The position numbers were made by a program, and so were the translations under genes. The notes under the pieces were generated by a model. It did not search any database, had not been told where the DNA came from, and worked only from the letters and a program-made list of their open reading frames with translations. From positions 1 through 58,894 of IMG/VR virus record IMGVR_UViG_3300044799_000109: a DNA stretch of 58,894 bases; one strand, given 5' to 3'. Origin of the DNA: a virus (lineage: Duplodnaviria; Caudoviricetes). Below, in pieces: positions 6,773 through 58,792 of this stretch; positions within the stretch are counted from its first letter, which is position 1, and each line of letters opens with the position of its first letter.

Positions 6773-7490
6773 CCCACCGCCAAGAATGGAATCTCACCAG
6801 CCTCTCGATTGCGGTTGGCCCTACATGATACTGCCTCGCAAGCGCAGCTTTGTTTGTGCTTCCGTTCTTGAATCTGGCTCTGATTTCTCGCACCAGGTCG
6901 GGGGTCAGATGGGCGTTATAAGTATTCATGCGCCTGGCTCCAGTGATCTTGTGTCGCCCTTTGGCCCAGCAATCCCGGTTGTTATCAGGGACCGTTCCGG
7001 CGAAGAGGTGGTCAGGCCGCACGCACGGTGGGTTGTCGCAGTGATGGCAGGAGAGCATTCCAGGTCCGAGCGGACCATAGGTAAGTTCATAACTCACCCG
7101 ATGAGCAGGGGTTGTCGGGCCTCTAGGGTCTATTCGGACATCACCGTAGCCTTGGATGCTACGGCCGCCTTTCCAGAGCCAACAGTCTCCTGTCTTGTCA
7201 ACCTGACTCCAGAACCAGTCTGCGAAAGGTATATCAGGGCGGCGGCCGTTGTGTCTGGCCATGAATCTCTGTACCGGGTACTTTCGCCGGACAGCAAACG
7301 ACTCTCCACAGCCGCAGGCACAGATGCGTATTTCTCCAGTCAATGGTCGACCACGGCCCTTATTGGCGGGTACGCCACCCCGCATGTTGTGGCCGGAGAT
7401 GAAGCGTCGTCTCTTCCGGGCACAGGCTGTGATGGGGAGTGGGTGGCCGCAACCGCAGGCGCAGAGGGGCATGGTAGAATCGGGGAGCAT
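6765..7490 (-). CDS. HNH homing endonuclease with N-terminal CACGCG repeats and C-terminal HTH (cassette 1)
   Basis: FWSQVDKTGDCWLWKG, AHRVSY, CHHCDNPPCVRPDHL; GGAGG RBS. Confidence 0.92.
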   Translation of the reverse strand: MLPDSTMPLCACGCGHPLPITACARKRRRFISGHNMRGGVPANKGRGRPLTGEIRICACGCGESFAVRRKYPVQRFMARHNGRRPDIPFADWFWSQVDKTGDCWLWKGGRSIQGYGDVRIDPRGPTTPAHRVSYELTYGPLGPGMLSCHHCDNPPCVRPDHLFAGTVPDNNRDCWAKGRHKITGARRMNTYNAHLTPDLVREIRARFKNGSTNKAALARQYHVGPTAIERLVRFHSWRWVT

Positions 7491-7559
7491 GGCGAACCTC
7501 CATTCGCTGTGCCACGCCCCCGGCTGTTACTAGCAGCGCGGGGGTTTCGTGCTGCCCGG

Positions 7560-7569
7560 ATTATAGCAC
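7560..7569 (-). promoter_or_regulatory. Extended -10 promoter (TGcTATAAT) of the cassette 1 HNH gene
   Basis: Reverse complement GTGCTATAAT; same motif upstream of all four antisense endonucleases. Confidence 0.75.
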
Positions 7570-7615
7570 AAAGGTTCTGGCAGCATCAAACTCTAATTCG
7601 AGCGGAGGTAAAGGC

Positions 7616-7831
7616 ATGAACGGGGGCAATGCGGCAGATCGTTTGGCCTTTTTGGACCGTGAGGCACAGTTTTGGGTGGCTGCCCTTGCGCTCGACGAGC
7701 AGGGCGCCCTCGCCTGTCGGGCCAAGTTGGACCAACTCGACGCCGAGAGGGTCGAGATCGTCCGGCACCAGGACGCCGTCCGCCACATCCTGCCGCAGAG
7801 GGCAAGGCTGGCAGAGCGGCTGGGAGTGTGA
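7616..7831 (+). CDS. Hypothetical protein with cassette-supplied recoded N-terminus
   Basis: GGAGG RBS; first ~20 codons are AT3-rich relative to the rest. Confidence 0.7.
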   Translation: MNGGNAADRLAFLDREAQFWVAALALDEQGALACRAKLDQLDAERVEIVRHQDAVRHILPQRARLAERLGV

Positions 7832-8032
7832 CGTGGTATCCCTGACGGTCTGGTCGCGGGAAGGCCGCTCCTGGGTGATCGAGGCCCCCACCTACGGTCA
7901 GGCTTTCGACCTGGCGACCGAGGCCGGCGCTGTCCGTGCGGTCGACGGGACCGGCTGGATAGAGCGCTGGCTGTGGGGCGAGTGGGTCGGCGTCTGCCGG
8001 CAGTCTAGGTCGACAGAGCGGCGGGGAGTGAG

Positions 8033-8362
8033 ATGATCTTCGAGGCACTCTGGGCATCGGCGCAACGTGGTGAACTGATTTTGGTGGAGGGGGGCTACTG
8101 TAGATATAGGGTCAGGCGAGACGGGCAGTTGACCATCTGCGAGATCATCGTACTGCCAGCCTACCAGCATCGGGGAGTTGGGCGGACTATCATTGCCGGA
8201 TTGGGCGAGGTGGCTCGAAAGCGGAACTGCACAAGTATCTTGGCGAAGTGTCCGGCTGATCTGGCCGCCAACGGATTCTATGAGCATCTCGGATTCAGCC
8301 AGGAAGCAATTGAGCACACCCGGACTGGTCGCGCGATCAATGTCTGGAGGCTGGCGTGCTGA
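8033..8362 (+). CDS. GNAT-family acetyltransferase
   Basis: VLPAYQHRGVGR motif A; ANGFYEHLGF. Confidence 0.85.
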   Translation: MIFEALWASAQRGELILVEGGYCRYRVRRDGQLTICEIIVLPAYQHRGVGRTIIAGLGEVARKRNCTSILAKCPADLAANGFYEHLGFSQEAIEHTRTGRAINVWRLAC

Positions 8363-9057
8363 CACTGGTCTACTGCGCCGGGGGGAACAAGCGGTTCACA
8401 GAGATAGCGATGGCCGCTGGTTTCCGTTCGGGCGTGCGCCTGCCTGATACGGTCTACTTTCCGCCCTGGTTCTGTGACCAGGACTGGCACGCGCCAAATC
8501 GAGCGGTCTACATGGCAGGACTGGCGAAGCATCGCCCGAGGATGGCCACGGTGCTTGACTGGGAGCTCGAGGAGCAATTGCCCGAGGTGCTGGACTGGGC
8601 CGAGGAAGCGGCGTCCTACTGCGAGCGGGTCGTGCTGATTCCCAAGGTCATGGGCGAGATCAGTCACCTGCCTCGGCGCATCGGTGGCGCAGACGTGGTG
8701 CTCGGGTACTCGGTACCGACCCGCTATGGCGGCACGTCTCTGCCGATCTGGGAGTGGGCTGGTTGGCCGATCCACCTGCTCGGCGGCTCGCCGCAGAGAC
8801 AGCAACAGACCTACCTTCACCTGCGACCCATCACGGAGGTCGTGTCCGCTGACGGCAACATGGCGCAGAAGTTGGCGGTAGGCCACTGTCAGTTCTGGGT
8901 GGACGGCACCGCCCACGGGGCTAACAACCGCTGGTGGCCGACGTTGGCGGAGGCAGACGGCGAACGGTGGCCGAGTGATGGACCATACGAAGCCTTCCGC
9001 CGCAGTTGCGTCAACATCAAGGCGGCCTGGGAGCGGCTGGGAGCGGCCACGCACTGA
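8356..9057 (+). CDS. DUF6610-like protein (possibly TGT-like barrel)
   Basis: ATVLDW, LGYSVPTRYGG, IHLLGGSP, SADGN motifs; family assignment from memory. Confidence 0.55.
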   Translation: MLTLVYCAGGNKRFTEIAMAAGFRSGVRLPDTVYFPPWFCDQDWHAPNRAVYMAGLAKHRPRMATVLDWELEEQLPEVLDWAEEAASYCERVVLIPKVMGEISHLPRRIGGADVVLGYSVPTRYGGTSLPIWEWAGWPIHLLGGSPQRQQQTYLHLRPITEVVSADGNMAQKLAVGHCQFWVDGTAHGANNRWWPTLAEADGERWPSDGPYEAFRRSCVNIKAAWERLGAATH

Positions 9058-9070
9058 GGAGGCGACTGGG

Positions 9071-44697: not shown

Positions 44698-44768
44698 GAG
44701 GGCAGACCTTGCGGCTAGGCGAGGGGGCACGGCGGGGCTGGCGGCGGGGGTAGCCCAGGAGGTGATGC

Positions 44769-44960: not shown

Positions 44961-45139
44961 CGTGGTTCATCACGATCCTGACCGGCGCGCTGGTAGTTGC
45001 GGATATGTTGGACGACATGCTTTTAGGCAATCGTTGGGCGGGCTGCCCGAAGGAGTTGTTTCCATTGTTGGGCGCAATCCTTGCGGGACTCTATGCGAAC
45101 GAGGCGCTGCGACGGATTGGCGGCGCTAGGAAGGAGTGA
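44927..45139 (+). CDS. Holin-like protein, 2 TM segments
   Basis: Two hydrophobic segments; upstream of the endolysin. Confidence 0.55.
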   Translation: MAEVEKLRARVTWFITILTGALVVADMLDDMLLGNRWAGCPKELFPLLGAILAGLYANEALRRIGGARKE

Positions 45140-45146
45140 GGATAGA

Positions 45147-45437
45147 ATGGACAGCATCATCGAGTTAGCCCTGGCGGCAACCGCCGTGGCGAAGACGCTG
45201 ATTGACCTGCTCAGGCTAGCTACCGACCTGCCGCGCTGGGGTCCGCCTGTCGGGGCCATCGTGGTAGGCATTGCCACCGTGACGCTGCTGGCCCTCGCCA
45301 ATGGCCTGCCGTTCACGACGCAGGGGACGGCGCAGGTAATCCTAGCGGGCATCTTGGCAGGGGGGTCGGCTGTCGGCGTCACCGTACTCGCACGCACGGC
45401 TGACAGCACGGTGGTAACGAGGCGCGGCGGACCGTGA
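45147..45437 (+). CDS. Putative holin
   Basis: Three hydrophobic segments; directly before the endolysin start. Confidence 0.7.
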   Translation: MDSIIELALAATAVAKTLIDLLRLATDLPRWGPPVGAIVVGIATVTLLALANGLPFTTQGTAQVILAGILAGGSAVGVTVLARTADSTVVTRRGGP

Positions 45438-46185: not shown

Positions 46186-47511
46186 GGCTGCTCTGACTAC
46201 GTAGACCTCGACCTCTGGCCCGATAGGTGGCAACGGATCATCGAGCGGCAACCCACCGCTAGGATTCACGTTCGCGGCTACCGCCGCGATGCGCTCGCCG
46301 ATCCCTCTGAGGAAGCCGACTGGCTGCTCGGGCTGATGAGTCGGTACGGTCGCTGGGTGGCGACCTGGCGGACGCGGAATGAACCGCAGTTGGAAAGCCC
46401 GGGAGTCACGCCCGGTCAGTGGTGCGACTGGCTCTGTGCGTTCGGGGAAGCCTGCGGGCCTGCCCACCGGGGCCAGCATCTACTATACACGCCCGCACCT
46501 TCGCCCAGCGTACAGTTCCCCACCTGGTGGGCGGCGACGGCGTCAGCAGCGGCGACTGGCCACTTCGACGGGATGGATGTTCACGCCTATGGTTCGCCGG
46601 AAGAGGTGTCCATAGTTCTGGGGGAGGCGCGGGACCAGTGGGCGAGGCCCCTACTTTGCTCGGAGACGAATTTCGGGGCGGGCCGCTCCTATGACCTCCG
46701 GGTCTACGCCGCAGCGCTCCCAGTCGTCCACCAGGTCTGCGAGGCGCACCACGTCGAGGCGCTCTGCCTGTTCATCTGGCAGTGGGCGAACCCGCCGGCG
46801 CTCCCGACCACGGTGGACGTGCGGGGCACCGTCGTCGAGGGGGCGGTCCGCGAGCTGGCGAAGTGTCTGAACGGAGGTGACCCGATGGCTAGCAGCGACT
46901 ACCCGGCGGCGGCATGGCGACCCGTGGCGAACCACGACGACGGGAGGGCCGGGCACCAGCCCGTCGCGATCTGTTACCACATCGCCGAGGGCTACCTCGT
47001 CAACCTATTCGGGCTATTCAACGACCCGGCGAAGAAGGTGAGCGCCCAGTATGGCGTCGGCAAGGGCGGCCTGATCGAGGAGTACGTCGCCGAGCGGGAT
47101 ACCGCCTGGGGTGCTAATTGGAACAAGCCGGAGTTGCGCAACCGCTTCATCGTGGACGCCTACGGCCATAAGGTGGATCCCGATCTCGTGTTCGTCCATA
47201 TCGAGTGCGAGGGCTTCCCGGGCGAGCCGATGCCAGAGCCGCAGTATCAGGCGCTGCTCGGTCTGACCCGGTCGATCTTCGCGCGGCACAGCTGGCCGGG
47301 GAGCGATGCCGATCGCTTCATCGGGCACTACCAACTCGACTCGGTCAACAGGGCGCAGGATCCGGGGATCGGCTTCCCCTGGCAGAGACTGCGCGCCGAG
47401 ATCAGTGCAAAACCTATCGTGGACCTGTCCGCCGAGGCGACTCGCCTCTATGCCCTCTCCGCCAGCCTGGCCCAGCTGGTCATGGACATCAAGGCAAAGA
47501 CAGGAGTTTGA
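46114..47511 (+). CDS. Endolysin: glycoside-hydrolase-like N-terminal domain plus Amidase_2 domain
   Basis: RNEP, DVHAY, SETN; ICYHIAEG, VSAQY, TAW, IECEG, GHYQ, DPG..FPW. Confidence 0.88.
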   Translation: MTRLGMHLPNRPFQSGEMERIIALGCSDYVDLDLWPDRWQRIIERQPTARIHVRGYRRDALADPSEEADWLLGLMSRYGRWVATWRTRNEPQLESPGVTPGQWCDWLCAFGEACGPAHRGQHLLYTPAPSPSVQFPTWWAATASAAATGHFDGMDVHAYGSPEEVSIVLGEARDQWARPLLCSETNFGAGRSYDLRVYAAALPVVHQVCEAHHVEALCLFIWQWANPPALPTTVDVRGTVVEGAVRELAKCLNGGDPMASSDYPAAAWRPVANHDDGRAGHQPVAICYHIAEGYLVNLFGLFNDPAKKVSAQYGVGKGGLIEEYVAERDTAWGANWNKPELRNRFIVDAYGHKVDPDLVFVHIECEGFPGEPMPEPQYQALLGLTRSIFARHSWPGSDADRFIGHYQLDSVNRAQDPGIGFPWQRLRAEISAKPIVDLSAEATRLYALSASLAQLVMDIKAKTGV

Positions 47512-47518
47512 CCTACCC

Positions 47519-47547
47519 TTGACAGCGACCGCTCAGCCTGCGATAAT
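47519..47547 (+). promoter_or_regulatory. Sigma70-type promoter of the RAMP moron
   Basis: TTGACA, 17 nt, then (TGc)GATAAT. Confidence 0.8.
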
Positions 47548-47551
47548 GGTG

Positions 47552-47660
47552 TTGCTGAGGGTCGTCGGTCGTTTTGTTTTGTCGCAGGTAACAGCCCGGA
47601 TGTCTGGCCGAACGGCCGCGACCCTCAGCAAGTTGCGACCGGTCAGATGTCCGGGCTTTT
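47552..47660 (+). ncRNA. Structured 5' leader / attenuator-like RNA
   Basis: 13-bp perfect inverted repeat 47552-47564/47619-47631; 18-bp stem with GU pairs 47593-47610/47640-47657 running into TTTT. Confidence 0.55.
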
Positions 47661-47691
47661 GCCTGTTCGGCAAGGCAAGGGAGGCCAGTCC

Positions 47692-48270
47692 ATGTACCAG
47701 GTCGGAGTCTCGATCAAGGGGACCGCTCCGCTCATGCAGCATCGATTCCCAATGCCGGATCTCGCCACGCAGGCGAAGGGCGGTCACAAGTCGGCGGGTG
47801 CCAAGGACTACACCCAGGAATGGCGAGACTACTTCTACGCCACGGCCGAGGGTGACATCTTCCAACCCGCTGCCCACATCGAGGGCGCGCTCATCAAGGC
47901 GGCCGTCAACTTCAAGGTCAGTGGCAAGCGCGGCAAGACGTACAAGGATCTCATCAGCGCCAACGTGTTCATCGACCCCGATCGGATTCTCCACGGTATC
48001 AAGGTGCCCGAGGAACTGGATACCGATGCCGACAAGCCGCTCTATCTCGACATGCGCCCTGTCGTGGTCCAGCGGTCCCGCGTGGTCAGGATCAGGCCGG
48101 CGTTCTGTCCGGGCTGGGTACTCGGCTTCGATATCCAGGTAATCGAGGACGAGATTAGCGCGGACATTCTCCAGGACATCCTGACGCTGGCAGGCAAGAC
48201 GGTAGGCATCGGGGACTATCGCCCACGGTTCGGACGGTTCAGCGTAGCGCGGTTCGAGGTCGCAAAGTAG
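47692..48270 (+). CDS. Standalone RAMP / Cas7-like RNA-binding protein (VIPR-like effector candidate)
   Basis: I.GTAPL N-terminal strand, P..HIEGAL helix, R.RP, G-rich loop GIGDYRPRFGRF; GGAGG RBS. Confidence 0.8.
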   Translation: MYQVGVSIKGTAPLMQHRFPMPDLATQAKGGHKSAGAKDYTQEWRDYFYATAEGDIFQPAAHIEGALIKAAVNFKVSGKRGKTYKDLISANVFIDPDRILHGIKVPEELDTDADKPLYLDMRPVVVQRSRVVRIRPAFCPGWVLGFDIQVIEDEISADILQDILTLAGKTVGIGDYRPRFGRFSVARFEVAK

Positions 48271-48605
48271 TCTTTGTGGCAGGGGTGTGGTCTGGTAGTG
48301 CGCGGTAGAGTGTGGCCTGGTGCGAAGAGGCTGGGTCAGGTGGGGCGAGGTAAGGCAAGGCCCTCTCTTTGTGGCGAGGGTGCGGCCTGGCGTGATCAGG
48401 CTTGGCGCGGCGCGGTGAGGCGTGGCAGAGTGCGGCAATGCGTGGCGGGGTGTGGCTGGGTCTGGTCTGGCAAGCCAAGGCACTCGACTTGTGGTGAGGG
48501 TGAGGTCGGATCGGATAAGTTCCGGTCGGGCGAGGCGAGGAGCGGCGGGGCTGGGCCTGGTATGGCGATGACAGGCGCGAACTGGTAGGGTAGGGCATGG
48601 TCGCC
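48271..48605 (+). ncRNA. Three-unit array of (GGY-NN)n repeats, putative guide RNAs
   Basis: Units start at 48271, 48366 and 48486 with TTGTGGY; strict 5-nt period of GGY-like triplet plus variable dinucleotide. Confidence 0.8.
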
Positions 48606-48923
48606 TTCACAGTTGACGGTCTTCCGGGGTTGCGATTCCCCTGGTACGGTCGGATACCGCTGCCCCTCTGGCTCCCGCTGAAACAGTGGGTCTACCAGAG
48701 GGACGGCGGGTTCTGCGCCTACTGCGGCAACACGACTGAGTACACGGATAGCCACTGTCATCATGCCCTTGAACTGAGTGAGGGTGGCACCAATCATGCC
48801 AGTAACCTCAAGACGCTCTGCCGGGATTGCCACAAGTCCCGGCATCCGTTCATGAGAACTGCGAGAGAAAGGTTACACTCCGGCGCTTCCGCCAACATCC
48901 TGAAGGCCAAGGTCGGGGCGTGA
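48597..48923 (+). CDS. HNH endonuclease
   Basis: RDGGFCAYCG, CHH..ELSEGGTN..SNLKTLCRDCH. Confidence 0.9.
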   Translation: MVAFTVDGLPGLRFPWYGRIPLPLWLPLKQWVYQRDGGFCAYCGNTTEYTDSHCHHALELSEGGTNHASNLKTLCRDCHKSRHPFMRTARERLHSGASANILKAKVGA

Positions 48924-49132
48924 CTACATCGAGGAAACGGTTAGGCAACCCAGACAGGGTAGACCCCGCCAGCGCCGAGCGAGCATACCAGCAGGCAACA
49001 GGGCGAACTGAACCCGCCCGGCGGCAAGCGGCGTGGACTGAGTACATCCTCTGCCACTTTGAGGCAACGGGACAGATGGCCCCCGGTTGCGACATGCGCG
49101 ACCTGATGGCCTGGTATGGGTTGACGAGGTGA
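48920..49132 (+). CDS. Hypothetical protein
   Basis: GTGA coupling to the HNH gene. Confidence 0.45.
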   Translation: MTTSRKRLGNPDRVDPASAERAYQQATGRTEPARRQAAWTEYILCHFEATGQMAPGCDMRDLMAWYGLTR

Positions 49133-49272
49133 CCTCCCCTCGCCGCGCCCTCGGCAGCCGGCTGTTCTTGCTGCTGTTCGTCGTCGGTGCCGTGGTGGGC
49201 ACGGTGCTCGTCGTCCTGGCCCGACTCCTCTAGCCCTCTCCCACAGGTAAATAAACTCTAACGCCAGAACCA

Positions 49273-49311
49273 TTGACAGGTATAGCTATACGTGCTACAG
49301 TATAGCTATAC
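49273..49311 (+). promoter_or_regulatory. Sigma70 promoter overlapped by two perfect palindromes GTATAGCTATAC
   Basis: TTGACA-17-(TGc)TACAGT; palindromes at 49280-49291 and 49300-49311. Confidence 0.8.
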
Positions 49312-49329
49312 ACGATGAGGAGAGACGAG

Positions 49330-49650
49330 ATGGCACGCGAGACCACGGTCAACTACTCGGCGAGCAGCGCCCAACAGCGCAACGCCCTGGTACAGCACGC
49401 GACCTCCGGGGAGCTCTACGTCATCCGCGAGGCGGCCGTCTGGGACGGGGACCAGTGCACTGGCACTCAGATCATCGCGTCGGCTGGCCCGATCTACCAC
49501 GGCGACCTGCCCTACCACACTGGCGAGAGCGCCACCCCGGAACTGTTCGACGCCATCGACAACTGGCACGTCGAGCAGGGGCCGGACGCCGAATGGTTGC
49601 AGGCCGAGATGGGCGCCGGGCGGCTGGCCTATCGGATCGGCGCCAGGTAG
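49330..49650 (+). CDS. Hypothetical protein
   Basis: GAGGAG RBS directly after the promoter. Confidence 0.65.
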   Translation: MARETTVNYSASSAQQRNALVQHATSGELYVIREAAVWDGDQCTGTQIIASAGPIYHGDLPYHTGESATPELFDAIDNWHVEQGPDAEWLQAEMGAGRLAYRIGAR

Positions 49651-49701
49651 AGACTCACCCGCCCCGCCGGTCGGGCCATAGGCCGGCAGAGGAGGACCAT
49701 C

Positions 49702-49920
49702 ATGCAGAAGTGGCGCGTTCGTAAGGAGGCGCTCGAATCGTGCGCCAGCCTGATCCGAACGAACGTCAGCGGCACGGACGACAGCGACCTATACGCCGGT
49801 CTATAAGACTGGACCGACCGCGACATCGGCACTTTCGGTCGGGAGTGCGAAAGAATCGCCGACCTGCTGGCTCGCAAGGCCGAGCACATCGGAACCAGTG
49901 GGAGGGTAACGACACGATGA
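49702..49920 (+). pseudogene. Small gene with internal in-frame TAA
   Basis: GGAGG RBS and ATG 49702; TAA at 49804-49806; frame continues to a TGA overlapping ATG 49917. Confidence 0.55.
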
Positions 49921-50105
49921 CCAATCAGGAGACGCAGGGCTTCACGAAGCAACTCAATGCCCGCCTCGACTCGGAGGCGTGGCGCAACCTGCGGGCAATT
50001 GCCGGGGTGACTGGAGAGGACTACTCGAAGATTCTCCGCCGGCTGCTCCGCGAGGAGTATGGCCGTGTGGTAGTTGGGAGGCCATCCGATGAAGTATCCC
50101 GGTAG
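49917..50105 (+). CDS. Ribbon-helix-helix-like regulator
   Basis: KQLNARLD..NLRAIA..YSKILRRLL; GGAGG RBS. Confidence 0.65.
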   Translation: MTNQETQGFTKQLNARLDSEAWRNLRAIAGVTGEDYSKILRRLLREEYGRVVVGRPSDEVSR

Positions 50106-50601
50106 GATAATTACTGATACTTTCCACGGCCTTCAGGATCCGCTCTTCGCGCCCATGAGCATAGCGGATCGGTGGCAGCATCTCCGTCGCCGACTCTGGG
50201 AGAGGGACGGCGGCTTGTGTGGAATCTGCGGCCAGCCGGTTGACCTCGGACCCAAGATGCACCTAGACCACATCGTACAGGTGGGCGAGGGCGGCTCGGA
50301 TGACTGGCAGAATCTCAGAATTACCCACGCCAAGTGCAATCAGAGCCGGCCGCGCACACAGTTGGGCGAGGTCAAGCGAGCCCAGAAGCCGTATGTTCCG
50401 ACCCGACCACCCAAAACCGTCAACAAACTGGTCCGCCTTCTCCCGGAGGAGGCGGAGACTCTGCATCGGGCTGCGGAGTTGGCCGGCTTGTCCGACACTC
50501 AGATGCTCCGCTTGCTGGCACGGCAGGCCATGCTTCTGACCTTCAACGTCACGCCGATCCTCGACGCGCTGGAAGCGGCGAAGAGGGAGTCAGCAACGTG
50601 A
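50089..50601 (+). CDS. HNH endonuclease with C-terminal RHH-like domain
   Basis: RDGGLCGICG, HLDHI..GGSD..NLRITHAKCN; LVRLLPEE..LHRAAELAGLS. Confidence 0.85.
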   Translation: MKYPGRIITDTFHGLQDPLFAPMSIADRWQHLRRRLWERDGGLCGICGQPVDLGPKMHLDHIVQVGEGGSDDWQNLRITHAKCNQSRPRTQLGEVKRAQKPYVPTRPPKTVNKLVRLLPEEAETLHRAAELAGLSDTQMLRLLARQAMLLTFNVTPILDALEAAKRESAT

Positions 50602-50958
50602 GGCGCGTCCATCGCTACCGCCCCGGCCTACAACGCCAAAGGCACTCCGACGACAGACCAGGCAGATCGATCTCCAGTTTGGGGCGCTCACCCGATGGCT
50701 GGAGAGTGACAGCCCGCGAATCCTGATAGAGCAGTACTACGCGGCGGTGCGGCAGATCGGCGAGGAATGGGCACGAATCATGGGCGAATACCAGCAGTTC
50801 CTCGTCCGTGTCGAGGCCGAGCGGGCCGCCGCGCGAGAGGGGGAGTGACACAGTTTCATACGCCCTCGGCGCCAAGAGGCCGTCAGCGGGCATTGTGGTG
50901 AGCCTGCTGAGTGTGAGAAGTGGCCAAGGCGGGCAGAGCGGGTGAACGCCCTACGTAG

Positions 50959-52407
50959 TCAGCCCTCGCCGAGCAGGGTCTCTACTCCCGGCCGCCAACT
51001 GATCGTGACCCGTCTCTCCGGGCCAACTGTCACCCGCTCGACGAGGCCGGCGACCGTCTCTCGCAGCGCCCCAGCGTCAAACTCGCCAGCTGCAAGCATC
51101 TCGGCCGCCCTGCGAATCCACGCGACGTGACCGGCGAGATCGGGCTCGGCGCTCTCGGCTTTGAGTGCCCGGAGGGTGGCCTGAGCGTCGGCGATCTGGC
51201 GACGGGTGGCACCAGCCCTCTCCGCGAACTGCGCTCGGGTGGTCTCGCCGTTCTCGCGCATCTCGATCTGCCGCGATTCGACCGCTCGGAGCCTGACGAC
51301 CTCAGCCTCTAACCCCACTACCTGCAGAGTTGTGTCACTATCTTCAGAGCGCTCCCGGGCTAATCGCTCCGCACTCGCGGCGATCTCGTCTGCCGAGGGC
51401 AGCCGTAGCCCGGCGAGTGCCCGGCGAAACTCCCGCTCGAGGGCCAGGTCGGAGATGCCACGAGCCTGGCAGCGGCGGTCGTAGCGCAGTCTGCAACCCC
51501 AGACGCCGTACTGGCGCACGGTCCCGCCGCGAGAGAATGTGTGGACCATCTTGGTGCCGCACTCACCGCAGACCAGGAGTCCAGCGCCCAGGAGATCGGG
51601 CCGCTCGGCTGGCGTGACGGCGTTGTGCCGACGGTCGCACAGTCTCGCCTGGACGCGGTCCCACAACTCCCGATTCACCCTCGCCGGGTGGTTGTCGCGG
51701 ATCGTGACGCCGTGAGCGACCAGGTCGCCCGCGTAGATCGGGTTGGTGAGGATGGTCCAGACCGTGTTCTTGCGCCAGGCGATGCCGGTGGGCGAGGGGC
51801 AGCCCTCGGCTCGCAGGCGCTCGGCCACGCCCAGGACAGAGAGGCGGTCAGGACCAGCGGGATCGTAGAGGGCGAAGGCGCGGTCCACACCGCGGCACCG
51901 GGGCGACGGGTCGGGCTCTGGCTTGCCGGTGGCGGAGTAGCGGTAGCCGAGCGGGATGGAGCCTGACCACTTGCCCTCGGCTGCTCGGGCGGCGAGGGCT
52001 GGGCGGACTCGCGCTGCTATCCTCTCGCTCTCCTTGCCGGCGAATCCGGCGCGGATCAGGAGCATCAACTCCTCTGCGACATCCTCGTCTGAGCACTCGA
52101 CCTTGACGCCCTGGTCCTGGAGCTCCCAGATGCGGGAGAGGATTTCGCGGGGGCGGCGGCCGAACCTATCGAGCCAGCGGACCAGGACGACGTCGGCCTC
52201 GCGGGCGCGGAGGCGGGTGAGCATGGCCTGGTAGGCGGGCCGGTCGTCGCGGCGGCCGGACTCGACATCGGAGAGGACGGCGAGCACATCGTATCCACGC
52301 TCGGCGGCGTAGGCGCGCAGCCGGCGCTCCTGCTCGGGGAGGCTGTAGCGATCGGCGGCGGCCTGCTCGTGGGAACTGACCCGAACATAGAGGAGAGCCC
52401 GAGTCAC
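50959..52407 (-). CDS. Large serine recombinase (integrase)
   Basis: YVRVSS, DVESG, DRP, LDRFGR, PLGY, ILTNPIYAG, CGECG zinc ribbon, coiled coil. Confidence 0.95.
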   Translation of the reverse strand: MTRALLYVRVSSHEQAAADRYSLPEQERRLRAYAAERGYDVLAVLSDVESGRRDDRPAYQAMLTRLRAREADVVLVRWLDRFGRRPREILSRIWELQDQGVKVECSDEDVAEELMLLIRAGFAGKESERIAARVRPALAARAAEGKWSGSIPLGYRYSATGKPEPDPSPRCRGVDRAFALYDPAGPDRLSVLGVAERLRAEGCPSPTGIAWRKNTVWTILTNPIYAGDLVAHGVTIRDNHPARVNRELWDRVQARLCDRRHNAVTPAERPDLLGAGLLVCGECGTKMVHTFSRGGTVRQYGVWGCRLRYDRRCQARGISDLALEREFRRALAGLRLPSADEIAASAERLARERSEDSDTTLQVVGLEAEVVRLRAVESRQIEMRENGETTRAQFAERAGATRRQIADAQATLRALKAESAEPDLAGHVAWIRRAAEMLAAGEFDAGALRETVAGLVERVTVGPERRVTISWRPGVETLLGEG

Positions 52408-52529
52408 CGGCCGGTGATCGTGGCGTAGAGGTACTGAGTAGCGTCTCGCACTAGCGTCGGGAAGGTGAATACGGTAACGAGGGCGAGTGTGACCGCCCAG
52501 GCGCAACCGATGGCGATCCTCTTGGCCAC
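52404..52529 (-). CDS. Small membrane peptide coupled to the integrase start
   Basis: GGAGG RBS; MAKRIAIGCAWAVTLALVTVFTF; its TGA overlaps the integrase GTG. Confidence 0.55.
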   Translation of the reverse strand: MAKRIAIGCAWAVTLALVTVFTFPTLVRDATQYLYATITGR

Positions 52530-52542
52530 AGTACACCTCCCT

Positions 52543-52977
52543 CTAGCCTAACTCCCGCTCCCGCTCCGCCAGCCAGGCCGCGACGCGGGATTCCGGCAGA
52601 TTGTATTGGTCAGCAATCTCCCAGGCAGGCATCCCCCACCAGCCAATGCCGCAGAGCAGCCAACCGGCGAACGTATCTGCCTGCCTTTCCTGCTTGACGA
52701 CTTGCGAGGCGTCAAACTCACACGTCTGGTCACCGGCGTGCAGCAGGTAGTGCCCGAGTTCGTGTGTCTTGATCCACTTCCGGAGGCAGGGGCAGAGTCC
52801 TAGGCGCACGGCGATGGTGTGGTCCACCCGAAAAGCCGGCACGGGAAGGTTCGCCGGGGCATCCTTGACGTGCAGCCCTAGGACCGCGCAGAGGTCGTCG
52901 ATCTGGTCCTCTCCGAGTGGGGGCACGACCCCGAACCGTGCGACGACTGAGCAGGCCATGTCGAATGCGGCATTCAC
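52543..52977 (-). CDS. ImmA/IrrE-family metallopeptidase
   Basis: HELGH and ERQADTFA; next to the XRE repressor. Confidence 0.88.
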   Translation of the reverse strand: MNAAFDMACSVVARFGVVPPLGEDQIDDLCAVLGLHVKDAPANLPVPAFRVDHTIAVRLGLCPCLRKWIKTHELGHYLLHAGDQTCEFDASQVVKQERQADTFAGWLLCGIGWWGMPAWEIADQYNLPESRVAAWLAERERELG

Positions 52978-52979
52978 CC

Positions 52980-53357
52980 CTACCCATCCTCCGCCTCCCA
53001 CTCGCGCACCAACATTTCAATGACGCGGCGCAGTTTGCGTCGGTCTGACTCCGGCACCCGAGCCAGATCGACGTACTGGACATCGCGTGATTCATCCCCA
53101 ACGGGCGAAGGTGGCCGCCGGCCTGCCCTGTCCCTACTAACTAGCTGGAGTAGGCGGGACTCGTCCGCGGCGAAGAATCGGGCCAGGCGTACCACGGTTT
53201 CCATTGAGGGTAGGATGCGGCCTCTCAGGTACTCCGAGATGTTGGAGCGGGATACCCCCGAGTAGGCTTCTAGTTGGCGAATCTTGAGACCCTCGCGCTG
53301 CCGCATGGCTGCCCTCAGCCAACTGGCGAAGGTCTGCGGCTCACTGTCCAGCGTCAT
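52980..53357 (-). CDS. XRE-family immunity repressor
   Basis: HTH SGVSRSNISEYLRG..PS; divergent from the Cro-like gene. Confidence 0.88.
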   Translation of the reverse strand: MTLDSEPQTFASWLRAAMRQREGLKIRQLEAYSGVSRSNISEYLRGRILPSMETVVRLARFFAADESRLLQLVSRDRAGRRPPSPVGDESRDVQYVDLARVPESDRRKLRRVIEMLVREWEAEDG

Positions 53358-53460
53358 TGTCCGTCCGTCTGTCCGAAAACTCGTCAGAATCATACCCCAA
53401 AACCCTTGACTTCTATATAGGGACGCGGTATTATGTGTCCGTCAGGAGGTCGGACAGTGG
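53358..53460. promoter_or_regulatory. Lysis-lysogeny switch region
   Basis: TTGACT-17-TATTAT (53406-53434, plus strand); TATGAT on the minus strand; repeated TGTCCG/CGGACA half-sites. Confidence 0.7.
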
Positions 53461-53678
53461 TGACTAGGACGGACGCAGGGCCACGCAGCAAACTGGAAGC
53501 GGCTCTCCACCTGCGCGGCAAGAATCCCTCCTGGCTGGCCCGGAAGGCTGGCTTTGGCTACATGCACACCTGGACCGTGGTATCTGGCCGGACCTTCGGG
53601 AGCCGGCGCTTCTACGAAGCTTGCGCCAAGGCCCTCGGCGTAGAGGTATCCGATCTGATCGACGAGGAGGTGGCCTAG
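53457..53678 (+). CDS. Cro-like HTH protein
   Basis: WLARKAG..ACAKALGVEVSDL; AGGAGG RBS. Confidence 0.8.
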   Translation: MVTRTDAGPRSKLEAALHLRGKNPSWLARKAGFGYMHTWTVVSGRTFGSRRFYEACAKALGVEVSDLIDEEVA

Positions 53679-53999
53679 ATGCTCGACACGCTGAAATGCC
53701 CACGTTGCGACCATCTGGCCCAGTTCTGCGAGTGCGGCGAGTACCACAACGGGCGCTCGCTCTCGGCGAAGCAGGTCCGCGAGATGTTCGCCGCCTGCGA
53801 CCGCGCCCACGAATCGGATCGGCAACCCGCGACCGACCTTCGCCGCTGCGACAACTGCGGCAGGATCGGCCGCGAGGGCGTCGACGTCTCGACGACCTGG
53901 CACCATCTCGGCGGCGTGGGCGATGTGCTCAGGACCTACTGCCGCGAGATGGTTCTGTGCTGGACTCGGCAGGAGCGCACGGCGGGGGAGCCCCGGTGA
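53679..53999 (+). CDS. Cys-rich hypothetical protein
   Basis: Multiple CxxC; GGAGG RBS. Confidence 0.6.
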   Translation: MLDTLKCPRCDHLAQFCECGEYHNGRSLSAKQVREMFAACDRAHESDRQPATDLRRCDNCGRIGREGVDVSTTWHHLGGVGDVLRTYCREMVLCWTRQERTAGEPR

Positions 54000-54128
54000 A
54001 CGCCGACGCCGAGCGACTCCGGGCCGATCTCCTCGACCGCCTTGGCCACGTCTGTCTGCACCTCGCGGACAGACTAGCACGAGAGTGGGCGGGTGGTGGC
54101 ATTGGAAACACGGAAGGAAGGGAGAAGG

Positions 54129-54497
54129 ATGCACCAAGTCCCAACGTCACACGCGGGGGGCTGCAAGGTGACGTTTCCCCGCGCGGTGATGGCGGCCTCG
54201 GAGGACACGCTGGCGCTCTGGCAGCAGGCCGAGAGGGCGCAGGCGATGGCCGAGGATGCCAGCCTGCCGCGAGGAGTCAGGCACGGCTGGCACCAACTCA
54301 TGGACACGTTGCAGGAGGCGGAGAAGGCGCGGCTGGTGCTGTTGCAGCGGACGGCGGAGTCGCACGACCGCGCGGTGGCAGTCGGGCCGACGGCCCGGTG
54401 TCGGGACTACTCGGCGACGGACCTGGGCTACTCGGAGCTGATGCAGTTGTGCAGGAAAGGGAAGTGCCGGGCCAGCGACCAGCCGCCGGCGGCATAG
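54129..54497 (+). CDS. Hypothetical protein
   Basis: GGAG RBS. Confidence 0.5.
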   Translation: MHQVPTSHAGGCKVTFPRAVMAASEDTLALWQQAERAQAMAEDASLPRGVRHGWHQLMDTLQEAEKARLVLLQRTAESHDRAVAVGPTARCRDYSATDLGYSELMQLCRKGKCRASDQPPAA

Positions 54498-54620
54498 GGA
54501 GGACTCGTGGCTGAGCAGAAGCAGAGAACCGCCCGCGCGAGCACGCAGACGGTTCGGGGTAGAGAGCATTGGTCGGGCCGCCTCTACCTCCCATTATGAA
54601 CGAACGGGAGGCGACTGTCA

Positions 54621-54845
54621 ATGCCTAACCGCGAGCGAGAGCGGCTGGCAAGGCTGGAATACGAAGCCTGGGACTTGCTCGCCGCGGTAGATGAGCGCGA
54701 GTGGCTCACAGTCCGCGGCGAGACACTCATTCCACGACTGCAAGAACGGTACAACCGTCGGCGTCGGAGCCTCCGGAACCTCGACGCCCTGAGCGCGCTC
54801 GAGGCCGAGACACCCGAAGACATCATGCGGGAGGCGTACCCGTGA
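54621..54845 (+). CDS. Hypothetical protein
   Basis: GGAGG RBS; coupled to the next gene. Confidence 0.6.
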   Translation: MPNRERERLARLEYEAWDLLAAVDEREWLTVRGETLIPRLQERYNRRRRSLRNLDALSALEAETPEDIMREAYP

Positions 54846-55174
54846 CTGACCAGAATCCGCTTGACTGGAAACTCCGCGTGACGATGCCCAACGGCGACAA
54901 GTACGAGGTGCCCGTTTCAGCCATCGCGCTCAATCGGGCACGCAGCTACGGCGACAAGTTCGGGGGCGACGTCGATCGGTCACTCCAAGAAGACACTTTG
55001 CCAGTCTTCCGGTCCAGTCCGTTCGAGGTCAAGGATTGGGCAGCGAACAGCATGGACTGGTCGGACGTGGACGCGATCGCAGTGAAAGTGGTCTCACGCC
55101 TCGACCTGAGTGAGAGCGAATTCCAGGAGGGGTGGGTCAACGGCGAGAAGGAGGTCATCAAGGCCAGTGGCTAG
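54842..55174 (+). CDS. Hypothetical protein
   Basis: GGAGG RBS, GTGA overlap; DWAANSMDWSDV motif. Confidence 0.65.
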   Translation: MTDQNPLDWKLRVTMPNGDKYEVPVSAIALNRARSYGDKFGGDVDRSLQEDTLPVFRSSPFEVKDWAANSMDWSDVDAIAVKVVSRLDLSESEFQEGWVNGEKEVIKASG

Positions 55175-55978
55175 CCAGGGCAGCAAGGATGCCAACATTC
55201 TCCGCGACGTCGAGGAGTTTCTGTCGGCGGCGAGGAGTGCCCGGCAGGCGGGTGAGGCCGAACCCACTCCGGCAGACCTGCAGGGCAAGCACTTCGAGCA
55301 CGTGGGAATCCAGCGGCTCCGCGAGGAGGCTGGCACGCCTGACACTCTACTTGCCAGGGCAACGCAGGTGATCTGGGCAGCTCGCGAGGCCAAGGGCTTT
55401 CTCTCAGAGGCAGAGTGCTCGATCGTGCTCTCTCTGATCGCCTACCACCGCGAATGGGAGCAGAGGGAAGCATGGAGGCCCACGCCGCTCGTCGTGTCCG
55501 GCCGCGGCCTTTTGCGCTGAGTGCGGACAGGCCATCGTCGCCGCGCAGGTCGGCACGAAACTGATCTCCGCCCAGTCCGTCGCCGGTGGCACCGAGTCCC
55601 GGTTCGGTCGGCAGCTGTGCTATTCGTGCGGGCAGAAGGCGCAGGCGAGGAAGGACCGCGAGGCGCACGAGGCCGCAGTCAGGGGTGAGGCCGTTGAGAC
55701 GGACGCCGAGGCTGGAGGTGAGGAAGCGGAGTAGACCCGCAGGGGGGTGAGAAAACGCCGCAAGGCGAAAATAGCAGCCGGCCGGGGCACCTGTGCCACA
55801 ACATCACGTCAACGCAAGGTAGTCGGGTAGGCTCGTGCCAGCTCCGGTCGGCAAATGGACGGTCAGGCGGACAGTGACGCCACGGGCTACACCCAACAGG
55901 GAAGTAGCGATCCGGTCAGAACAGTGGGGGCAGCACCCACACCGTCCACCAGCAGACCTATTCAGAGGAGGTGTGACC

Positions 55979-56638
55979 TTGGCAGTCCTCGAGATCCGCG
56001 GCGAGCCTGAGCCCACGCCTGAACCGACCCGCGCACAACGCCTCTCGGATTCCATGCGCCTTGTGATGCACGACCGCTACGAGCTCGACCCGCAGGAAGT
56101 CTACCGGCCGCCGATGGACAAGCGCTTCTCACTGCCGGGCGGCGAGGAACTGGACTACCTGCCGGCACCCGACCTCCAGCGAATCGCCGGATACCTCATC
56201 GGCGAGTGCTCGGAATTGGAGCACCTGACCAGGCAGAGCGTGATCTACCTCTGGAAGCGCAAGGGCGGTACGTACCAGGGACAGGGCGTGATGGGCAAGT
56301 GCGTCAAGATGTCCGGGCTGGGCAAGTACTTCTCCGAGGCGATTTGGGTAGTCTGGCTGGCGGCGGACCATCTCGTCGATCTGGAGATCACGCGGCGACA
56401 GGTCGAGGCACTACTCCATCACGAATTGCTGCACGCCGGCGAGAGCGAACCCGACGACGATGGGACTACAAAGCCTGTAGTCGAGGGGCATGACTTCGAC
56501 GGGTTCGGCCTGAACGTGCAACGGTTTGGGACTTGGTTCGCACCTCTCCAACTCGCAGCCAAGGCCTTCGTCGAGGGGGGCAAGCAACTCGCGCTGTTTG
56601 AGGGTGGCGGCGACGACGAGGGCGAGGAAGCCGAGTAG
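55979..56638 (+). CDS. Putative phage metallopeptidase
   Basis: ALLHHELLH..HDFDGF. Confidence 0.8.
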   Translation: MAVLEIRGEPEPTPEPTRAQRLSDSMRLVMHDRYELDPQEVYRPPMDKRFSLPGGEELDYLPAPDLQRIAGYLIGECSELEHLTRQSVIYLWKRKGGTYQGQGVMGKCVKMSGLGKYFSEAIWVVWLAADHLVDLEITRRQVEALLHHELLHAGESEPDDDGTTKPVVEGHDFDGFGLNVQRFGTWFAPLQLAAKAFVEGGKQLALFEGGGDDEGEEAE

Positions 56639-56940
56639 CCAGCAAACAGCAGGAGCAGCGATCGTGCTAGCGGGCAGCAGAGCGGGGGATGCGGAGTGAC
56701 TGTGCTAACAGCCCAGCGCCCGGCGACGAAGCACCGGCAACTGCGGGTCTATGGGGACCAACTCTATCGCTCAGACTTCGGGACGGTCTACAGTTCCGAT
56801 CCGGGTTGGGCATGGGATGCCCACATCATCTGCCTATGCGGGAAACGTCTGTGCTCGTCCATCTGTGGGACAAGACGGGCTGCCCTGCGGGATGTGAGGG
56901 CACTCTACCAGCATCATCGACGGGAGGACAGCGCCGGATG

Positions 56941-57135
56941 CTAGCGGCGCAGCGCGGCCAGCGCGGCCTCGACCTCGGCACGGGGGATGTAGGTCGGCGC
57001 TCGGCTGGGATCGCGGTACAGGGACGATTTGGGGAGCGGGTGCAGCTTGCCGTCGGCGATGGCCTGGTGAATGACCTTGCGGCTCACGCCCAGGAGCCTG
57101 GCCGTCTCGGAGATGGTGTACTTGTCCTTATCCAC
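56941..57135 (-). CDS. Excisionase-like HTH protein (probably leaderless)
   Basis: YTISETARLLGVSRKVIHQAIADGKL..YIPRAEV; TGgTATACT 6 nt upstream of GTG. Confidence 0.8.
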   Translation of the reverse strand: MDKDKYTISETARLLGVSRKVIHQAIADGKLHPLPKSSLYRDPSRAPTYIPRAEVEAALAALRR

Positions 57136-57192
57136 GGTCACAGTATACCACGTCGCGCACCACTTGACGCAATGGGAACAACGGATACAGAC

Positions 57193-57221
57193 TTGACAAG
57201 AGCAGCAGGCAGGGATACACT
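57193..57221 (+). promoter_or_regulatory. Sigma70 promoter
   Basis: TTGACA-17-TACACT. Confidence 0.75.
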
Positions 57222-57284
57222 AGGGCCAGTAGAGCCACTAGGAACAGTGTAGCAACGTAGCGATGTAGCAGGAGGAGCGAGGCG

Positions 57285-57491
57285 ATGACCAATGGACCGA
57301 ACCCAAAGGCAGAGGTTATGCCGGCGGCGACTCTGACCCTCTGGTGTGACGAGTGCCAGCACCCGATCGGCGCGTTCGACCTGCTGACTGACCACCTGGC
57401 GGCGGTGCTCTTCGCCGCCCGCAAGGAGCACGCGAAGGCAAAGCACGACTGGCACGAGCGGGAGATGATCCTGGTCGGCGAGGGCCGGTGA
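57285..57491 (+). CDS. Small Zn-finger-like protein
   Basis: AGGAGG RBS; CxxC..H..H. Confidence 0.6.
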   Translation: MTNGPNPKAEVMPAATLTLWCDECQHPIGAFDLLTDHLAAVLFAARKEHAKAKHDWHEREMILVGEGR

Positions 57492-58084
57492 TGCTGCAAT
57501 CCGTTCGGGTCATGGGGGAACTGGAAGCCCGGCAATGCCTTGACCGCATACGCGCCGGGCTAATATCCGTCGCCACTGAGGTTCGCCGGTTCCACGACGG
57601 GGAGGGCTGGCGCGCCCTCGGTTATCTGACCTTCGAGGAGTGCGTCGGCAGGGAATTGGGCATCAGCAAGCAGCATGGCTATCGACTGCTTGAGGCAAGC
57701 CACATTCGAGAGGAACTAGCCCATAGCTTGCCCGCTAGTAACATCGATGTTACTAGCTTCCAGCCTAGCGATACCCAACTGCTAGAACTGCTGCCACTGC
57801 CGGCGAATCGGCGCGTCGAGATTGCCCGGCAGGTGGACTTCTCCACCAAGACCGTCCGCGAGCTCCGTCAGATCGTCAGGGAAGCTAAGGCGACTCTGGA
57901 TATCAAGGTCCAGGAGACTAGGGCCGAGCAGCCGCCCTTGCCGCGCCCGTCCGTTCCTGCGTTGCCCCAAGATGTGCGGATCGAGGTCGCGGACGCTGGC
58001 GAGATGCCGCTCTCCGATGACTCCATTGATCTGATCGTGACCAGCCCGCCCTACGGGTTGTTTGATGCGGAGGGAGAAGAATGA
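57488..58084 (+). CDS. DNA methyltransferase N-terminal part (HTH-like region plus catalytic SPPY) of a split gene
   Basis: WRALGYLTFEEC..GISKQHGYRL; DDSIDLIVTSPPYG then early stop. Confidence 0.85.
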   Translation: MMLQSVRVMGELEARQCLDRIRAGLISVATEVRRFHDGEGWRALGYLTFEECVGRELGISKQHGYRLLEASHIREELAHSLPASNIDVTSFQPSDTQLLELLPLPANRRVEIARQVDFSTKTVRELRQIVREAKATLDIKVQETRAEQPPLPRPSVPALPQDVRIEVADAGEMPLSDDSIDLIVTSPPYGLFDAEGEE

Positions 58085-58737
58085 TTCAACTGCCACATCT
58101 GCCCGTACAGTTCCTGCCGCAGAGCGACCAATTGAGGCGGCTTGAGATGCCCACGATCTCTCTTAAGCCCCTGGCTAGCGACTCTTTCGACGAGAACCTT
58201 GGGCACGCGTACCCAACTCAGGCTACGCGACGAGCGGCGCAGAGAGACCAACGTGCCATTTCTGATTGCTTGGCTGACCATTCCACGCGACCGATAACCA
58301 AGCGCGTCCGCGACCTGCGACACGTCCATCAATTCGCCTTCCTCCCAATCTGGGAACTCGCGGACAAACCAGTAGGATGCGAGGGACATCTGCCCGTTGG
58401 CCTTCGTTCTATGGAGATCCAAGACAAGTTGTGCTTGCTCATGCTTGATGCGGAGGTAGGGCAAGAGAGCCTCACAGGCTCGTGCGGCCATTTGATTAGT
58501 GATGCTGAAACGGTAGAGCCATCGTCCGTTCGGCACGGAGGGCTTGGTCATCTGAACGATGCCGCCGAAGGTTTGCCTAAGCAACTCGGGAACCTGGGGC
58601 GTGACTTGCTTAAGCCCGAGCCGCTCATCGAAGTCAGGTGCCCAACCGTACCGTGTAGCTGTCCTCTTGATGCTGATGTAGCCGTCAGCGTCAACGGCCC
58701 CCGCGAGGTAAGAAAACAGCAGTGCATCTGTAGTCAT
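58051..58737 (-). CDS. LAGLIDADG homing endonuclease (cassette 4)
   Basis: YLAGAVDADGYI, FGG, LLPYLRIKHEQA; GGAGG RBS. Confidence 0.92.
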   Translation of the reverse strand: MTTDALLFSYLAGAVDADGYISIKRTATRYGWAPDFDERLGLKQVTPQVPELLRQTFGGIVQMTKPSVPNGRWLYRFSITNQMAARACEALLPYLRIKHEQAQLVLDLHRTKANGQMSLASYWFVREFPDWEEGELMDVSQVADALGYRSRGMVSQAIRNGTLVSLRRSSRSLSWVRVPKVLVERVASQGLKRDRGHLKPPQLVALRQELYGQMWQLNHSSPSASNNP

Positions 58738-58792
58738 ATCGCCTCCCCTATGTGGCCCAGTAACTATTATAGCACAGGAGGGGCATGAAATG
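58061..58792 (-). mobile_element. Antisense homing-endonuclease cassette 4, splitting the methyltransferase (boundaries approximate)
   Basis: Inserted between PPYGL and KGY; TGcTATAAT at 58766-58775 on the minus strand; supplies AGGAGG and ATG for the C-terminal part. Confidence 0.8.

Follow-up and report, generated by a model that had tools for sequence, protein, structure and literature searches.

Four backward-facing nuclease genes of a phage contig are crossed by open, end-coupled reading frames on the sense strand

The DNA analysed here, IMG/VR record IMGVR_UViG_3300044799_000109 (Duplodnaviria; Caudoviricetes), is a viral contig of 58,894 nucleotides (nt) with a GC content of ~64%; this window is the entire record, and its completeness is estimated at 81%. 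The plus strand holds nearly all of the genes, and four minus-strand genes are set within the runs of plus-strand genes. These four encode nucleases, three of the HNH_3 family and one of the LAGLIDADG family, and across each of the cassettes that carry them the plus strand keeps an open reading frame (ORF), here called a bridge ORF, that is codon-aligned with the nuclease gene and ends at the start of the next plus-strand gene. Our comparisons support selection, not base composition, as what keeps this frame open and coupled at its end. The four cassettes and their neighbours are laid out as follows (aa, amino acids; GC3, GC content at third codon positions):

6231–6710, plus strand: gene upstream of cassette 1 (159 aa, GC3 0.78), with no Pfam or PHROG match
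6707–6772, plus strand: 21-codon remnant ORF, a diverged duplicate of the 5' end of the gene at 7616–7831
6765–7490, minus strand: HNH_3 nuclease of cassette 1 (241 aa), with no TTA, CTA or TCA
6786–7619, plus strand: bridge ORF 1 (277 codons), ending as ATGA on the next start
7491–7615, minus strand: predicted leader and promoter of nuclease 1 (promoter scan, fold)
7616–7831, plus strand: gene downstream of cassette 1 (71 aa), with GGAGG 8 nt before its ATG
29941–30387, plus strand: gene upstream of cassette 2 (148 aa)
30374–31126, plus strand: bridge ORF 2 (250 codons), starting 14 nt inside the upstream gene and stopping 2 nt before the ATG at 31129
30389–31063, minus strand: HNH_3 nuclease of cassette 2 (224 aa), with no TTA, CTA or TCA
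31064–31128, minus strand: predicted leader and promoter of nuclease 2, TG-extended -10 at 31092–31100
31129–32679, plus strand: GH113-domain tail-associated protein downstream of cassette 2 (516 aa; PF22612, E = 5.5e-53)
45081–45437, plus strand: holin-like gene upstream of cassette 3 (phrog_1299, E = 2e-5)
45434–46117, plus strand: bridge ORF 3 (227 codons), with a GTGA overlap at its start and ATGA at its end
45503–46012, minus strand: HNH_3 nuclease of cassette 3 (169 aa), with no TTA, CTA or TCA
46013–46113, minus strand: predicted leader and promoter of nuclease 3, TG-extended -10 TGCTACAAT at 46083–46091
46114–47511, plus strand: endolysin (Amidase_2; PF01510, E = 1.8e-12) downstream of cassette 3
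57488–58084, plus strand: N-terminal half of the DNA methyltransferase that cassette 4 splits, reaching just past the SPPY motif
58051–58737, minus strand: LAGLIDADG nuclease of cassette 4 (228 aa), with a single motif and a C-terminal helix-turn-helix
58081–58788, plus strand: bridge ORF 4 (235 codons), with an ATGA overlap at its start and its stop 1 nt before the ATG at 58790
58738–58789, minus strand: predicted leader and promoter of nuclease 4, TG-extended -10 at 58766–58774
58790–58894, plus strand: C-terminal half of the same methyltransferase, truncated where the window ends; AGGAGG precedes its ATG

The original prediction had named the four plus-strand ORFs as open across the inserts, and both the ORF list and the stop-to-stop frames confirm them: the open frames run over 6726–7616 (891 nt), 30320–31123 (804 nt), 45404–46114 (711 nt) and 58066–58785 (720 nt), and the remaining two plus frames contain 7–21 stops each across the same cassettes. 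That all four bridge ORFs occupy the codon-aligned antisense frame of the nuclease gene had gone unremarked. In GC-rich genomes this frame is the classical shadow frame: a stop can arise in it only where the gene on the other strand uses TTA, CTA or TCA, and each of these codons has synonymous alternatives. No such codon lies in the nuclease genes within the bridges, the sole TCA of nuclease 4 (58063) falling outside bridge ORF 4.

The downstream junctions read as predicted, each frame ending on or within 2 nt of the next start: ATGA at 7616 and at 46114, TAG-AG-ATG at 31124–31131 (a 2-nt gap) and TGA-A-ATG at 58786–58792 (a 1-nt gap). The companion claim, that each ORF starts at or near the upstream stop, holds for cassettes 2, 3 and 4, with a 14-nt overlap at 30374, a GTGA overlap at 45434 and an ATGA overlap at 58081, but is looser for cassette 1, where the ATG at 6786 lies 76 nt past the stop of the real upstream gene (6710). 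There the 21-codon remnant ORF opens with a GTGA overlap on the upstream stop, and bridge ORF 1 starts 14 nt past the stop of this mini-ORF. Overlap or spacing of a few nucleotides between stop and start is found downstream in all four cassettes, and upstream directly in three of four and via the mini-ORF in the other.

The two nuclease families were also predicted to be unrelated, and profile searches bear this out. PF13392 (HNH_3) matched nucleases 1, 2 and 3 with 29.7, 36.1 and 44.6 bits (curated cut-off 24.8), and a DNA-level PF13392 scan of the window returned these three genes and none besides; nucleases 1 and 3 also matched phrog_1872 (E = 3e-24 and 3e-32). The protein of cassette 4 alone scored 14.1 bits against Pfam LAGLIDADG_1, below the cut-off of 23.1, and a profile of its homologues (22 sequences) matched I-MsoI (E = 2.9e-10) and I-CvuI (3e-6), with the motif at residues 11–19; it also matched phrog_5046. 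PHROG endonuclease families were thus matched by all four nucleases, and neither Pfam nor PHROG families by any of the four bridge ORF products. Each nuclease has its own predicted minus-strand TG-extended -10 (TGCTATAAT in three cassettes, TGCTACAAT in one) and a ribosome-binding site. Rfam, searched at the gathering threshold over the whole window, gave no match to an intron or other RNA family, and the nuclease genes are therefore considered free-standing; Pfam found no intein domain in the flanking ORFs, and the nucleases lie on the strand opposite to the host genes.

To judge how often such frames occur by chance, we took as reference the codon usage and aligned-frame openness of the 47 confidently called genes of the window. 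The three critical codons make up 0.91% of the codons in these genes, and the aligned antisense frame is open in 8 of the 47 and in 5 of the 25 that encode 150–300 aa. The nuclease genes have a lower GC3 (0.62–0.68) and a larger share of A-ending codons (10–18% versus 8.3%), and still contain no TTA, CTA or TCA inside the bridges. Given the Leu and Ser content of the nuclease genes, the probabilities of an open frame in the four coding parts multiply to 4.5e-4 under the window codon usage, the most conservative null, to 9.8e-8 under that of sense-oriented HNH genes from other phages and to 5.7e-10 when calibrated on the A-ending four-fold codons of the nucleases themselves. For the leaders we used dinucleotide shuffles and scored how often the frame both stayed open and stopped between -8 and +6 relative to the next start, which happened in 21%, 14%, 71% and 4% of trials for cassettes 1–4. 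Including leaders and end position brings the joint probability to 3.4e-7 even with the most lenient null, which speaks against chance as the source of the open, end-coupled frames. As further controls, two sense-oriented HNH genes in the window carry 1 and 2 of the critical codons and a three-gene minus-strand operon carries 7, 4 and 7. The former, at 48597–48923 and 50074–50601, belong to another Pfam family, PF01844 (40.6 and 44.1 bits). The latter, at 50959–53393, encodes proteins of 525, 152 and 137 aa; nothing else in the window besides the cassettes runs backward, and its aligned-frame stops mark it as an ordinary divergent operon, not a bridged insert.

Since no close relative of the phage was found, we surveyed distant nuclease homologues, collecting 191 dereplicated loci over three surveys and labelling a gene antisense or sense only where both nearest flanking genes agreed. 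The first survey, of HNH genes in viral contigs, covered 80 loci, of which 66 were kept after 2 incomplete and 12 near-duplicate loci were dropped (20 antisense, 26 sense, 7 with one usable flank and 13 mixed). TTA, CTA and TCA accounted for 41 of 507 Leu and Ser codons in antisense and 128 of 584 in sense genes (per-gene Mann–Whitney p = 7.5e-4), and were absent altogether from 8/20 and 2/26 genes, respectively; the A-ending share in six other four-fold families did not differ (0.204 antisense versus 0.212 sense). In the second survey, of LAGLIDADG genes (76 loci, 66 kept), the counts were 63/303 versus 227/806 (p = 0.036), with 3 of 10 antisense and 1 of 29 sense genes free of the codons and a clearly bimodal distribution. 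The third, an out-of-sample set from metagenome contigs, comprised 80 loci, 72 complete and 59 new once overlaps with the first survey were removed, and gave 6/125 versus 109/488 (p = 0.0039), with 3/6 and 1/21 genes lacking the codons; relative to expectation from the earlier fit to sense genes, observed stops stood at 0.18 in antisense and 0.99 in sense genes. Pooled over the three surveys, 14 of 36 strictly antisense genes are free of all three codons versus 4 of 76 sense genes. The survey of sense-strand stop depletion that the original prediction had proposed for antisense endonuclease genes thus finds the codons depleted against sense-oriented controls each time.

The depletion is specific to the frame as well as to the orientation. 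In the first two surveys, the aligned frame contains 1.69 stops per 100 codons in antisense versus 3.53 in sense genes (p = 7.4e-5), and in the other two complementary frames the orientations are alike (p = 0.71 and p = 0.30). When the stop rate was modelled as a function of GC3 from the sense genes, 1.24 stop-free antisense genes were expected and 11 of 30 observed, versus 1.56 expected and 3 of 55 observed for sense genes. The tree built from 69 HNH proteins has the shape of a star, its terminal branches measuring about one change per site, and orientation is scattered over it (19 changes versus 21.0 in shuffles), so the survey loci can be treated as close to independent. With aligned-frame depletion confined to antisense genes in two families and three samples, the earlier suggestion that the open, end-coupled frame goes beyond a high-GC accident stands. 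The codon-aligned reverse frame is open over the whole gene and its stops are depleted relative to matched controls, and in this sense the genes are ambigrammatic. The same architecture occurs at 44–48% GC, at loci L096 and L095; the antisense LAGLIDADG gene of L096, in a 44% GC genome, has none of the critical codons at 24 positions while 40% of its four-fold codons end in A, and its anatomy was checked by hand. At this locus (3949–4486) the -10 lies only ~7 nt before the ATG of the nuclease gene, which suggests that its mRNA may be leaderless or nearly so.

End coupling recurs in the surveys too. We counted a locus as coupled when its frame closed between -8 and +15 nt from where an ORF with 60 or more codons starts. 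Of the 15 strictly antisense loci with an open frame, 10 qualified, the local background being 18.6% (p = 5.9e-5), as did 12 of 21 when loci with one usable flank were included; the overlap is an exact ATGA in six loci. At many loci the open frame continues from 84–384 nt upstream of the nuclease gene. An extended -10 was located near the nuclease start at 13 of 42 antisense versus 3 of 64 sense loci. At L052 and L058, whose HNH proteins are diverged, a near-identical ribosome-binding stretch, AGGAGGGCAAGC, precedes the downstream ATGA on the sense strand, and it looks as if the cassette carried the initiation signals of the downstream gene along with it.

The HNH gene reads in the sense direction at all five annotated phage loci inspected (Mx9, Ralstonia YL1, Pseudomonas Rollin, Pseudomonas BUCT566 and Mycobacterium Phayonce), and these loci gave no cultured phage with the bridge architecture. 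Two cassette regions had no megablast match in the phage collection, no relative turned up when viral contigs were scanned with the endolysin, the GH113 protein and the LAGLIDADG protein on its own, and neither a close relative nor an empty site for the HNH_3 cassettes was found in the phage collection, the viral contigs and two DNA runs. The contigs of these runs were compared with 44500–58894: one run is probably the source of the window, the other contains the same phage in short pieces, and no contig joins across cassette 3 or 4, which is neutral evidence. A look-up of RNA runs for 44800–47000 listed none.

The individual cassettes differ in how they meet their targets, and two of these features, 5' duplications and a split gene, add to the original prediction. 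In cassette 1, the remnant ORF at 6707–6772 and the gene at 7616–7831 are identical at 12 of 15 residues (BLASTP, E = 3e-8). In cassette 3, codons 1–24 of the bridge ORF are a diverged duplicate of the endolysin N-terminus (13 of 24 identical, E = 1e-8), and this remnant provides both the start codon of the bridge ORF and its overlap with the stop of the holin-like gene. Both duplications are significant at the protein level, DNA-level similarity being only ~70% and not significant. They may have arisen by one-sided homing, in which a break near target codon 21–24 would have been repaired homologously on the right and joined illegitimately on the left. The leaders of the two cassettes (7472–7569 and 45994–46092) are 82% identical over 98 nt, and the proteins 44% identical. 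The predicted promoter of nuclease 1 has a -35 TTGATG, an 18-nt spacer and a TG-extended -10 at 7560–7568; that of nuclease 3 was not called by a simple promoter scan. Leader 1 folds into a GC hairpin, and its ribosome-binding site is located in the loop of a small hairpin. The two leaders have in common a CCCCCG...CGGGGG hairpin, with an inner stem that is not the same in both, as well as a GCGAA/TTCGC mini-hairpin whose loop holds the nuclease Shine–Dalgarno sequence. On the plus strand the larger hairpin is followed by TTTC; as a plus-strand terminator it was not called by a simple scan, and its fold z-scores are modest (-1.3 to -2.4). A DUF6610 protein (E = 4e-34) is encoded at 8356–9057, directly downstream of the cassette 1 target region.

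Cassette 2 is a clean intergenic insert, the stop of its nuclease gene lying 1 nt after that of the upstream gene. The nuclease most likely starts at the ATG at 31063, which has a GGAGAG ribosome-binding site, rather than at the GTG at 31192, and the -35 TTGACC adjoins the start of the plus-strand gene. The GH113 tail-associated protein begins with a GLSGLSGLSG repeat (31129–31175), a direct DNA repeat that abuts the end of the cassette. Cassette 4 lies within a methyltransferase gene. Residues 13–191 of the N-terminal half align to 25–200 of an intact 418-aa PF01555 homologue (E = 2e-40), and residues 5–35 of the C-terminal half to 207–239 of the same protein (E = 2e-6; PF01555, E = 8e-4); the two pieces thus align side by side to an uninterrupted homologue, as is characteristic of genes in pieces. 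The ATG of bridge ORF 4 is preceded by GGAGGGAG.

We think it moderately probable that a selected, translatable ORF lets ribosomes cross the insert and reach the downstream gene, and the recurrence of the arrangement in unrelated phages points to a need for ribosomes to traverse such inserts. The nuclease cassette would have been placed backwards in a forward polycistronic phage operon, and selection would then purge TTA, CTA and TCA from the nuclease gene, at low cost because all three have synonymous alternatives, and also exclude stops from the leader, so that the codon-aligned frame of the operon mRNA would be open across the whole insert. The aligned frame would be the one used because just three synonymously replaceable codons need avoiding. 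The bridge would start at or near the stop of the upstream gene, or extend the remnant of an interrupted gene, and end on the downstream start, typically as ATGA. Ribosomes translating it would ensure that 700–900 nt of operon mRNA are never bare, which may spare this mRNA Rho-type polarity and decay, perhaps also pairing with the antisense transcript of the nuclease, and would deliver the ribosomes to the start of the next gene. Translation itself would matter, and not the product. Ribosome retention, translational coupling and avoidance of polarity are, judged from the sequence, plausible purposes of such a frame.

Rival accounts differ in what they take the frame to be for, if anything. Were the bridges ordinary shadow ORFs of a high-GC genome, whose ends meet gene starts by chance in a tightly packed genome, one would expect open aligned frames in ordinary genes, and these do occur (5/25 window genes of 150–300 aa, 8/47 overall); moreover, in cassettes 1 and 3 only one plus frame out of three is interrupted over the leader, and in three cassettes shuffled leaders stay open in 21–71% of trials. 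A joint probability of 3.4e-7 under the most lenient null, the presence of the same architecture at 44–48% GC (L096, L095), a depletion that depends on orientation and frame and was replicated out of sample, and end coupling at 10/15 loci against a background of 19% nevertheless make this account highly improbable. A historical explanation, in which the cassettes entered existing sense ORFs or brought flanking coding sequence along and the continuity was inherited, fits the retained duplicates of target 5' ends in cassettes 1 and 3, the [A/G]TGA of each copy, which stems from the context of the ancestral start, and the position of cassette 4 within a gene. Inheritance can neither strip three codons from nucleases about one substitution per site apart nor yield a loss restricted to the antisense orientation, and we hold it to be very unlikely.

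If the plus-strand ORFs were instead true overlapping genes with products functional for the cassette or the phage, their coupled starts and stops, the ribosome-binding site GGAGGGAG before bridge ORF 4 and their lengths of 227–277 codons would be readily understood. None of the four products matches Pfam or PHROG, however, and with the device spanning two unrelated nuclease families the four cannot share sequence; a tblastn search with bridge ORF 3 gave only 7 weak matches, all antisense of HNH genes, and at several loci the bridge merely extends an upstream ORF or remnant, all of which renders functional products quite unlikely. It is likewise unlikely, if less implausible than these, that the open frame serves the nuclease itself, with sense mRNA covered by ribosomes, or sense transcription running unbroken over the cassette, regulating it through transcriptional interference or by limiting pairing between sense and antisense RNA. 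In each cassette an extended -10 promoter faces outward from within the 3' end of the bridge ORF, and leaders 1 and 3 are conserved at 82% when their proteins are 44% identical; both observations speak for such regulation, which alone does not account for a frame ending exactly on the start of the next gene.

The account in which ribosomes cross the insert on the bridge ORF has difficulties of its own. All four downstream genes have purine runs resembling Shine–Dalgarno sequences, strong ones after cassettes 1, 3 and 4 and a GAGG 11 nt upstream after cassette 2, and strict termination–reinitiation is therefore not required for their expression; bridge ORF 1, starting behind the mini-ORF, is without a Shine–Dalgarno sequence. 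In the surveys, 5 of the 15 open antisense loci are not end-coupled by our test, and coupling on the start side is weak (6/19 against a 10.6% background, p = 0.011). Several antisense nucleases are undepleted (L024 with 8, L027 with 7, L050 with 6, L084 with 17, L086 with 25 and L121 with 13 stops): depletion is bimodal, and the bridge is not obligatory, many antisense nucleases elsewhere being without one. Survey orientations and gene starts, moreover, come from a crude heuristic of ORF length and GC3 rather than from a trained gene finder.

We give even odds to a general rule by which selection makes the backward-inserted mobile nuclease genes of phages ambigrammatic, letting operon ribosomes read through them. 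If true, such an insert would be invisible to translation-dependent transcription and mRNA surveillance, an undescribed rule for the coexistence of selfish DNA with polycistronic genomes, and the continuity of translation in phage operons would be strong enough to shape the synonymous codons of inserted selfish genes. Inserts that the operon must read through would then be recognisable by an end-coupled frame and by a loss of TTA, CTA and TCA limited to one orientation. It would also be a warning for annotation, gene-like ORFs then lying on both strands where a gene finder retains only one. Full-text literature searches, with subscription journals and supplements outside their scope, returned no published description of bridged antisense nucleases.

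Several known systems invite comparison. The shadow ORFs of high-GC genomes use the same frame, with the same three deciding codons, but are neutral by-products; the bridges depend on orientation, run through non-coding leaders, are coupled at their ends and occur also at 44% GC. The split methyltransferase resembles an nrd gene that has reportedly been split by a nuclease insertion. Unlike genes in pieces, cassette 4 is without intein halves (by Pfam), and its nuclease is antisense and bridged by a sense ORF. The methyltransferase, its two ORFs keeping the original order, also resembles the fractured genes of PMC2677866, and the passages on phage nuclease genes searched there and in PMC10448857 make no mention of antisense orientation. 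Free-standing nucleases of the T4 type (seg, mob), as covered by the available passages of a review of T4 mobile elements (PMC2988022), likewise lie between or inside phage genes and are fitted to host transcription and translation; several of their ORFs overlap the upstream ORF (mobE, with UAAUGA), which is read there as possible translational coupling, and segD is antisense. The coupled cistron in T4 is the nuclease ORF itself, whereas here it is the complementary frame of the nuclease gene, and those passages contain no mention of a sense-strand ORF across an antisense nuclease gene.

The closest analogue is found in the ambigrammatic narnaviruses, in which, according to the portions of the reports at hand, a reverse codon-aligned frame is kept open by avoiding CUA, UUA and UCA, the same three codons as here; translation of the reverse ORF is reported to be needed for persistence, and its product is argued to be non-functional (PMC7010960, PMC8316113, PMC8155312). 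If our reading that ribosomes cross the insert is correct, the bridged cassettes would be a bacterial DNA counterpart of these RNA viruses and a simple bacterial test system for the idea, drawn from them, that the traffic of ribosomes and not the product is what counts. On the same partial view of these sources, the narnaviruses are whole RNA-virus genomes of eukaryotes and the bridged element is a DNA cassette of 0.7–0.9 kb in phages; unlike theirs, its open frame lies on the mRNA of a host operon, is coupled at both ends and depends on the orientation of the insert.

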